Source: Podarcis cretensis (taxonomy: Eukaryota). From it: 64,000 nucleotides of DNA. Of the stretch, positions 52,878 to 55,742 are shown piece by piece. The position numbers and the translations under genes are program-made. The DNA lies in the NCBI GenBank assembly GCA_951804945.1, contig OX638153.1, forward strand, positions 17,732,001-17,796,000, read 5' to 3'. The notes under the pieces were generated by a model. It saw only the letters and a list, made by a program, of their open reading frames with translations. It had not been told where the DNA came from and searched no databases. Within the stretch, counting starts at the first letter, position 1; each line of letters starts with the position of its first letter.

Positions 52878-53127
52878 TCAAAGTCTATCTTCCTGCACGT
52901 ACTTCTGCTTTTCCCGGGAGTCCCTGGTCTTAGTTCGATTCTGTCGGTTTGCAGTTGCTGGGATAGAATGAACCGATGAGCTTTTCTTGCTAGACGTATA
53001 GGAGGAATGGGAAGAATGGGAGAGACTAGCCCGGGACTGGCCAGCATTGTGGTCGTACTGCATCAAACAGAAGATCCAGTCTGTCGGCACAAGCTCAAAC
53101 TCATAAGGTGGGTTGGCTATAACAAAA
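52878..53127 (-). CDS. KCNMA1: KCNMA1 exon read through to TGA: ERL-type (QEDRL) C-terminus; internal alternative donor after 52903
   Basis: (R)[82 protein letters not shown]; acceptor ttctttttcag; internal donor CAGAA/gtacgt at 52903/52902. Confidence 0.97.
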
Positions 53128-54350
53128 CTGAAAAAGAAAAGAACAGCCGTCTTACTTCCTTTCCATGAGGTTTCCATGCTCTACACAAATAATATCATCA
53201 GCTTGATATTTTCACGCTGAAAGGAAGGGAGTGAGCTTCTACTGTACAGTCATTGCATAGGTATCTGATAAAGGTTGCAGTAGTGTTGTGGGGAGCTGCT
53301 TTTTCATGCATCCATCCCACAGCACTACAGTAAAGGTTCCCAACAACATGTGTGAGGGCCTTGACTTTGAAATGTACTGCTGGTGGAATCCATAGAAGAA
53401 ACAAGCGTTTTCAGGGTCGTGGTGGTTCAACAAATCTGAGTTAAATTTGTCAATCGGAATTTGAAGCAAGTTCGGAGAAGCCTCCCCAAGACAAGACATC
53501 CAAGGTACCTCAAGAGATGTCCCAAGATTTTCAATGAACCTGTTGTAATTTCTCTGTAGCCTTCTGCACATCTCTCACCACCAAAATAATGCAACATCCT
53601 CCCATCTTAATGCATTCAGGGAAAGGATATTTGCATCAGCACAAGAGACAGAAAACAGCTGAGGCCATTTGCAGTTCAAAGGGTGAGCAGCACTGAGGTG
53701 GCTTAAACATCTGGAGGGTGCCAGGTTTGGGAAAAGGTGTCTTGCTATCCCTGCAGCCATGTCTGTAGGAAACAGATCCAAAAGCTGATAGGCAGGAGAG
53801 GAGAGTGTTATAAAGTAAGAAAAGTGGGCTGAACAAGTCATTTTGTCTTGGAAGCAGTTACCTATAATACACTAATGTTTGTGGCAGCCCCCCCTTCCTG
53901 GAATATGCTCTGCCACAGTCGACAGGTTGGGGAAGACAGCTTGTCCTGCAATCTGTGACTCTCTTGATCAGTTCAGATCAGATATTTTTTGTTGTTTGCC
54001 TCTGAACCCTATCTGCGGTAAGTCATATCTTCAGTCTTCCCTTCTCCCTAATTTCCTTCGCCCATTTCTCTTCCTTGACCCTCTTTCCATACTGTGAGTT
54101 TTAACCTATTGCTGTATCTCATTTGCTAACCTGAGAATTGCAGGGGCTTTAAATCCTGTGCCTACTTTGGAGGCAAAACAATTGTTAAGAGGGAAGCAGA
54201 ATGGGGAAATCTTGTATGTGTTTGCTCACCGGTGGTGTTTGTTCATTTACTTTACCTATTTAAACTACCCATATCTCGTGTTTTTACCCAACAAACGTAC
54301 AACATTCAAATGTTGAGAATATCAGATACAGCCATGTCTGGAATTTAACA

Positions 54351-54559
54351 AAAAAAATTCCTTCCAGTAGCACCTTAAAGACCAACTAAGTTAGTTCTTG
54401 GTATGAGCTTTCGTGTGCATGCACACTTCTTCAGATAGAAGTGTGCATGCACACGAAAGCTCATACCAAGAACTAACTTAGTTGGTCTTTAAGGTGCTAC
54501 TGGAAGGAATTTTTTTTGTTTTGACTATGGCAGACCAACACGGCTACCTATCTGTAACA
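54351..54559. mobile_element. Penelope-like element terminal (pLTR) fragment with inversion
   Basis: Perfect inverted repeat 54347-54430 / 54437-54520; 11-bp direct repeat GGAATTTAACA at 54340-54350 and 54560-54570; hammerhead core present. Confidence 0.8.
54402..54437 (-). ncRNA. Minimal type I hammerhead ribozyme motif
   Basis: UAU-CUGAAGA-A-GUGUGCAUGCACAC-GAAA-GC-UC^AUA: CUGANGA, stem II, GAAA, palindromic AGCU stem III and UH site. Confidence 0.7.
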
Positions 54560-55623
54560 GGAATTTAACAGTAATAATTGTGTGTTGTAGTTTTTTTTAA
54601 AGTTATCCTCCCCTTTCAAAAGCCCAGAGAAACAAAATAAGTTTTACCTGCTGCTGGAAAAGGAGAAACACATGTGCTTCGGGGGGGGGGGGGATCCTAG
54701 CAATAGCCTACCTGCCTCACCTCTGACAATGGGGGCATCCAAAGCTGGGCTTTTGATGACACTCTCAGCACACAGACAGGTTCAAATGAGAGAAGGTACC
54801 ACTTTAGATATCTCAGTAACCTTTGCAACTTTGGACTAATTGCTTGGGGTTATTTGGAACGAGGAAGGGAATATATTTTCTACATCTTCTAAAAAAACAC
54901 ATGGCTTTTTAACTCAGTTAACTCAGTAGTGAAGTATTCTGGTACATTGTGATCAACTGGTGACAGTTTTTTAGTTATTTATTTGTAGTTCAAAATCAGC
55001 TTGTTCTACTAGTACATTAGGAAAAAATGGAGCTGCTAAAATAATACCCTTTAGGCTTTCAAGTTATACAGTGTACTTCCTCAGGTTTGATTTGGGGGGG
55101 TGGGGAGAAAGTGTGAACCCAAGAATGGTTTAATCTTTGCCCATATATTTTTTACACTCTTAAGAGGACTAAAGAAGTACTTTTATGCAGGGCTATCCTA
55201 TGTGTTAGGGGTCTCCTGATAAAGATGGAAGTTCACTATATTCAGGAAATGATCAGTGGTAGTGAACTCAGCGAAAAAACCACGGGATGCTTCATACTTA
55301 CAAAATGGACTTAAACTCAGTGAAGCTTACTACTTCCAAAGAAGCATGCAGTAGCATATGCACAAATACTTCTACCACCTTCTCTGAAAACAAAACCCAG
55401 AGATATAAGGGAAACCTATATTCCAGCGCAAGGCCGTTGTGTTCAAAACGTTTTTCTTCATCATCCAGCCTCCCAATCCCATCGATTTTCTGGGAAAATG
55501 TGAATGCTTGCACCTGCCTTACTACCATTAACCAGCACTTGGTGCTGTGGTGAAGTTTACAGGGACAGTGAAAAACAGCAATAGCGATAAAGGCTGGCCA
55601 AGAGGCTTATGTTTTGTACATAC

Positions 55624-55742
55624 CGCTTAGTGCATTGGCTAGGCGTGCTTTGGTTGAAATCTCTCAATCGGTATATTCCAAAGCAAAGCATATTGTATGT
55701 TTTCAAAGCTTTACAAAACAAATCTCCATAACAACCACCGTC
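55624..55742 (-). CDS. KCNMA1: KCNMA1 coding exon (119 nt, phase 0/2)
   Basis: Translates [39 protein letters not shown] plus CG; acceptor ttgtctcctag, donor CG/gtatgt; frame joins both neighbouring exons. Not in the ORF track. Confidence 0.97.

Follow-up and report, generated by a model that had tools for sequence, protein, structure and literature searches.

BK is among the most conserved of vertebrate ion channels, and the 3' end of its gene, KCNMA1 (Slo1), lies on the minus strand within the 64,000-nucleotide stretch of Podarcis cretensis DNA analyzed here, referred to as the window. The initial annotation, made from the letters of this stretch, counted seven changes from human Slo1 within about 40 residues of an RCK2 segment that it took to be near invariant, and proposed a lineage-specific, possibly compensatory or selected remodelling of the distal gating ring. 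The locus raises the questions of whether these changes are real, which animals carry them, and what they may mean for the channel.

Gene structure and authenticity of the changed segment

KCNMA1 is a single gene, and the changed segment is divided between two of its exons (window coordinates are given; all features are on the minus strand). Exon A (55624..55742), in which the segment begins, corresponds to human residues from D992 up to the second base of the R1031 codon and contains the codons for F1020, N1021, and Q1022 (human A, H, and L) at 55650..55658, which fall at the start of a loop between two strands assigned by DSSP. Exon B (52878..53127) encodes the protein from human Y1032 onward and can be read through to an ERL-type stop; it holds the codons for F1032 and A1035 (human Y and T; 53115..53126) in the second strand, for W1048 (human L; 53076..53078) as the first residue of the third strand, and for Y1055 (human F; 53055..53057) where the RCK2 C-terminal subdomain ends. 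Shorter use of exon B leads to the VYR and DEC isoforms; the DEC form is reached through a short alternative exon (50236..50264, bounds taken from splice signals), and the last coding exon (approximately 40597..40750) encodes the DEC tail, or VYR in another frame. Exons A and B are separated by a phase 2 GT-AG intron (53128..55623) and join in frame, with an exon A acceptor ending in CCTAG, an exon A donor CG/GTATGT, and an exon B acceptor TTTTCAG/T, so the annotation was right that splice signals and frame show no pseudogene decay.

Translation of the joined exons returns the residues that the annotation had listed. Relative to human Slo1 (PDB chains, human numbering), they amount to A1020F, H1021N, L1022Q, Y1032F, T1035A, L1048W, and F1055Y. 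The description of this cluster as non-conservative does not hold for all seven changes: in Y>F, F>Y, and T>A the replacement is a conservative one. The unstructured tail encoded by exon B contains eight more differences from human, most of which are common to turtles and birds. Two parts of the gene that had been named for contrast as little changed or unchanged served as controls and behaved as described: the upstream 65-residue exon (60187..60381) differs from a deer protein only by one A>S change, and the DEC tail has exactly the sequence found most often, in 143 of the proteins collected.

The P. cretensis exons match Slo1 nearly letter for letter and the Slo3-like locus is separate, which identifies the gene as the Slo1 orthologue. 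Exons A and B have one genomic match each, and the remaining KCNMA1 exons retrieved from the genome are intact: the pore exon matches turtle across the selectivity filter (GYG), the exon carrying the acidic Ca2+ bowl of RCK2 is identical to turtle across the bowl, and the RCK1 C-terminal strands also match turtle. A lacertid protein whose segment is identical to that of the window scores above the Pfam cut-off for PF22614, PF03493, and PF21014 (Slowpoke_C).

Four public sequencing runs were compared with the window; two of them (X15 and X18) derive from related organisms and are RNA-like by an automatic guess. As far as the listed differences show, contigs of both kinds, DNA and RNA-like, agree with the window. 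The RNA-like contigs span the intron, that of X15 exactly at 53127/55624; X15 has one differing letter in exon A, and X18 has none over 55642-55743, which covers the first three changed codons. DNA run X2 shows 8 differences over 52500-54337, none of them at a changed codon. Zootoca, Podarcis, Varanus, and Phrynosoma, four other species, also have annotated proteins with the identical segment. Agreement of independent contigs, single genomic matches, the intact state of the other exons retrieved, and identical residues in other species in practice dismiss assembly error, pseudogene decay, or duplication of an alternative exon as the source of the cluster, and nothing was found in favor of any of these. 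A duplicate or mutually exclusive copy of exons A and B was considered and ruled out by the single genomic match of each; a partial model of Gekko japonicus that shows the exon start twice was not taken as a real duplication. The seven changes are real, and they are not the product of assembly error, pseudogene decay, or confusion with Slo3.

Two repeats lie in the intron between exons A and B. The first, at 54347-54520, is an inverted repeat of 84 bp whose arms match perfectly and lie 6 bases apart; it belongs to a very high-copy element (summed depth of ~1 million in the DNA runs) that may resemble the ends of reptile Penelope-like repeats. The second, at 53670-53786, is of lower copy number, with a depth of ~15x background. 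Elsewhere in the gene, at C5:17966002-17969154, a pair of exons that resemble each other encode the last part of S6 together with the linker, presumably the known mutually exclusive exons of Slo1.

Distribution among vertebrates and order of gains

In total, 542 proteins were collected through homology searches, cluster look-ups, and distant representatives, and 383 of them have a full vertebrate-type segment; the counts below are of proteins, many of them isoforms, drawn from best-scoring rows and not from a random sample. F1020 is present in 65 of the 383, all of which also have F1032 and A1035. These 65 comprise 21 named squamate species (3 geckos, 2 skinks, and 16 episquamates), one snake UniRef group, and three records without a species name. 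Counted by species, F1020, F1032, and A1035 occur in 21/21 named squamates, W1048 in all 18 that are not geckos, and Y1055 in 16/16 episquamates; counted by protein, W1048 occurs in 57 of the 65 (the 8 without it are from geckos) and Y1055 in 50 (the 15 without it being 8 gecko, 5 skink, and 2 skink-like proteins).

The other 318 proteins come from tuatara, turtles, crocodilians, birds, mammals, frogs, and fish, with a few that lack a name. The segment had been called normally near-invariant, and in this set 273 of the 318 are indeed identical to the human segment over 44 residues; the KRYVITNPP stretch is common even to a wasp Slo. F1020, N1021, F1032, W1048, and Y1055 are absent from all 318, Q1022 occurs in 17 (two turtle genera), and A1035 occurs in 9 (crocodilians). 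Of 4,623 hits put in order by their match to the skink segment, the best 47 consisted of 46 named squamates and one nameless protein. As far as these sequences reach, the signature is squamate-wide, with three changes in every squamate species seen and the rest in large sub-groups. The proposed lineage specificity accordingly holds against tuatara, turtles, crocodilians, and birds, but not for this lizard alone: the sharing among reptiles that the annotation had named as grounds for refutation is found within lizards and snakes.

KCNMA1 itself is well known, and public annotated proteins already contain the residues; the clade-wide pattern has apparently gone unremarked. No paper on a squamate KCNMA1 signature or on these residues was found in the literature searched, in which subscription journals are poorly covered, and the accessible part of one source mentions KCNMA1 for pigs only (PMC9942394).

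Parsimony on a species tree taken from the established phylogeny would assign A1020F, L1022Q, Y1032F, and T1035A to the squamate stem, with H1021N and L1048W following after the split from geckos and F1055Y after the split from skinks, in keeping with a series of change counts that runs from 0 in tuatara through 4 in gecko and 6 in skink to 7 in episquamates. At 1020, 1032, and 1035, no reversal or third state is found in the 65 squamate proteins, and none is found at 1048 and 1055, once gained, among the squamate proteins seen. Positions 1021-1028 and 1038, by contrast, changed 12 more times within Squamata. Skinks have the extra changes Q1027G and P1038N in the same segment, and C1028S is seen in two skink-like proteins.

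Clustering was tested with 33 tips and 732 structured positions (positions 300-1137, with poorly matching stretches masked). On the path to the lacertid, 7 of the 20 changed sites fall within 36 residues, which agrees with the proposal that the changes cluster beyond chance when scanned over the whole channel (P = 0.002) and is marginal when RCK2, which holds 17 of the 20 path sites, is tested alone (P about 0.03); since the 36-residue span was picked post hoc, these and the following clustering P values are optimistic. For sites without any non-squamate change, 5 of 10 path changes lie in the span (P = 0.004, and 0.036 within RCK2). The segment receives 19 of 72 changes on squamate branches versus 10 of 135 on other branches (Fisher P = 3e-4), and no comparable cluster is found on the mammal and frog stems (P = 0.55 and 0.16, respectively). 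P values were similar with group consensus tips that included mis-modelled N-terminal stretches of mammals.

Structural setting of the changed residues

Within RCK2, the segment forms the end of the TrkA_C-like subdomain (PF21014), and the Pfam Slowpoke_C model fits lacertid and turtle almost equally (165.3 and 165.9 bits). In AlphaFold models, strands run over residues ~1009-1017, 1031-1035, and 1048-1053, residues 1018-1030 form a loop, and the three strands have high confidence in the model of an identical segment. A short model superimposes on human BK (6nd0) with a Z score of 13.4 and a root mean square deviation (rmsd) of 1.3 over 79 aligned residues, and the full-length model matches human Slo1 structures, so that the predicted fold of the subdomain is unchanged. 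The family-invariant residues G1013, R1016, R1031, P1037, and D1047 are untouched. Compared with human Slo1 (6V38, 6V3G, 6nd0, 3MT5), the lizard channel keeps the pore filter, the Ca2+ bowl, E399, and the ERL/VYR/DEC exon set, whereas it differs by the seven changes in 1020-1055 and by Y401F, S681C, and L737F.

Among 71 distant representatives, the squamate states are met with as F1032 in 19/66, A1035 in 5/66, W1048 in 3/63, and Y1055 in 5/39 of those covering the site, but this set includes non-orthologues, and its tolerance therefore says little about constraint in vertebrates. The loop 1020-1029 is hypervariable outside vertebrates and position 1048 is polar or aromatic in the distant relatives, which together suggest that these residues are exposed. 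According to the part of PMC4319557 that was available, the subdomain is located at the periphery of the gating ring, in the RCK1-RCK2 interface of one subunit. Compensating changes were looked for in the C-terminal strands of RCK1, and none were found.

RCK_C/TrkA_C domains (MthK, KtrA 4xtt, KhtT 7agv, BusR 7b5u) adopt the same small fold, with Z scores of 5.9-8.0 over ~61-76 aligned residues (4xtt: Z 7.6, rmsd 3.6, 76 aligned; 7agv: Z 6.8, rmsd 2.2, 65 aligned), but are only 9-19% identical to the BK subdomain. Several of them have been solved with c-di-AMP; their counterpart in BK is not known to bind a ligand.

Three further squamate changes are spread over the channel, and all are present in the P. 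cretensis genome. Y401F (C5:17941414-17941542) lies two residues from the Mg2+ ligand E399 and is found in 12/12 aligned squamates covering the site and in no aligned non-squamate. S681C, at the end of the RCK1-RCK2 linker (C5:17828391-17828522), is found in 13/13 aligned squamates and 0/20 others, and the new cysteine, at human S681, could be a modification site. L737F (C5:17823565-17823810), again in 13/13 aligned squamates, lies between R735 and P740, which by our own mapping correspond to the human loss-of-function pair R800W/P805L. In the changed segment itself, L1048 belongs to the hydrophobic stretch 1047-1052, which we take to be an ER-export motif.

C-terminal export signals are mentioned as reported in the accessible part of PMC2906319. 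Two human variants map to the segment: through the alignment in Fig. S1 of PMC11309989, as far as it was available, we place N1159S at N1036 and T1111R at T1046. The portions of the sources at hand describe N1159S, which is listed as benign, as leaving currents unchanged (10.1101/120543), and the de novo patient variant T1111R as being of uncertain significance (PMC8259716). The patient variant R1083K was also considered for the segment and rejected, because a supplement figure of PMC11309989 puts it upstream.

Possible origins of the change and its consequences

Over adaptive remodelling, uncoupled drift, conversion by Slo3, and artefact, we favor the reading that a peripheral patch of the RCK2 C-terminal subdomain was repacked stepwise by compensatory changes and then held by purifying selection, with a small predicted effect on gating; we give it about an even chance of being correct. 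Going by strand order and alternation, Phe1020, new at the loop root, would pack near 1032 and 1048; each change may have let the following one be tolerated, and purifying selection would then have kept the resulting aromatic residues, whereas the tip of the loop (1021-1028) and 1038 went on drifting. L1022Q in turtles and T1035A in crocodilians arose separately and on their own, which shows that neither depends on a partner change. Because the Ca2+ bowl, the pore filter, and the RCK1 partner strands are unchanged, any effect is likelier to concern the channel surface, through trafficking or a partner, than the sensing of Ca2+. The near-invariance of the segment from fish to mammals implies, however, that a function was changed or dropped, which plain repacking leaves unexplained.

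This near-invariance outside Squamata, combined with the placement of Y401F, S681C, and L737F near functional sites in P. cretensis and the aligned squamates, is the strongest argument for a rather unlikely alternative, that positive selection in early squamates remodelled gating, trafficking, or a site for a partner or ligand, those three changes included. Such selection would also fit the apparent gain, along a single branch, of four changes within a stretch that hardly changed elsewhere, the share of path changes at otherwise unchanged sites that falls in the span (5/10, P = 0.004), the two base changes that A>F takes, the retention of the new states in all species seen, and the position of L1048 in the presumed ER-export stretch; yet the gains are scattered over three branches, 3/7 changes are conservative, no matching change is seen in the RCK1 partner strands, and the neighboring human variant N1159S is silent in recordings. 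The fold shared with bacterial c-di-AMP-binding RCK_C domains (4xtt, Z 7.6) points in the same adaptive direction, but fold likeness by itself shows no ligand. Somewhat less probable still is that constraint on the peripheral patch was lost and uncoupled, near-neutral changes accumulated. The 12 further changes at 1021-1028 and 1038 inside Squamata, the hypervariability of the loop outside vertebrates, and the location of 17/20 path sites in RCK2 anyway, with only a marginal test inside that domain, speak for such relaxation; relaxed sites would, however, be expected to show reversals or third states over the age of the group, and the lasting retention of 1020, 1032, and 1035 in the 65 proteins, and of 1048 and 1055 once gained, counts against it.

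A very improbable origin for F1032 and A1035 is a short gene conversion from the paralogue KCNU1 (Slo3), which lies on contig C15 at about 36.62-36.69 Mb with its matching exons open. Slo3 has F at the position of 1032, and the KCNU1 of this lizard also has A at that of 1035, as in squamate Slo1; the paralogue shares the subdomain fold (4hpf: Z 11.4, rmsd 1.8, 74 aligned), but it is a separate locus on a different contig, ~46% identical over the exons and low in nucleotide identity. KCNMA1 and KCNU1 agree at 40/75 nucleotides over the exon start and at 15/21 over the first seven codons, which is no clear tract, although an old tract could be eroded; conversion would in any case cover at most 2/7 changes, and A1035 was reached alone in crocodilians.

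Under the repacking that we favor, the seven residues would have little bearing on gating, and if swapping them has no measurable effect, they are merely a molecular marker of squamate clades. It is also conceivable, though quite unlikely, that the vertebrate BK subdomain bears a putative docking or ligand surface, related by fold to the bacterial RCK_C domains that bind c-di-AMP and kept near-invariant from fish to mammals, that was rebuilt under selection in early squamates, in which case the BK channels of lizards and snakes would be regulated differently and the seven residues would mark the site. Stepwise change across a whole clade provides a natural series of variants with which the peripheral RCK2 patch can be probed, and substitutions that are tolerated in a working vertebrate channel may aid in judging nearby human variants.
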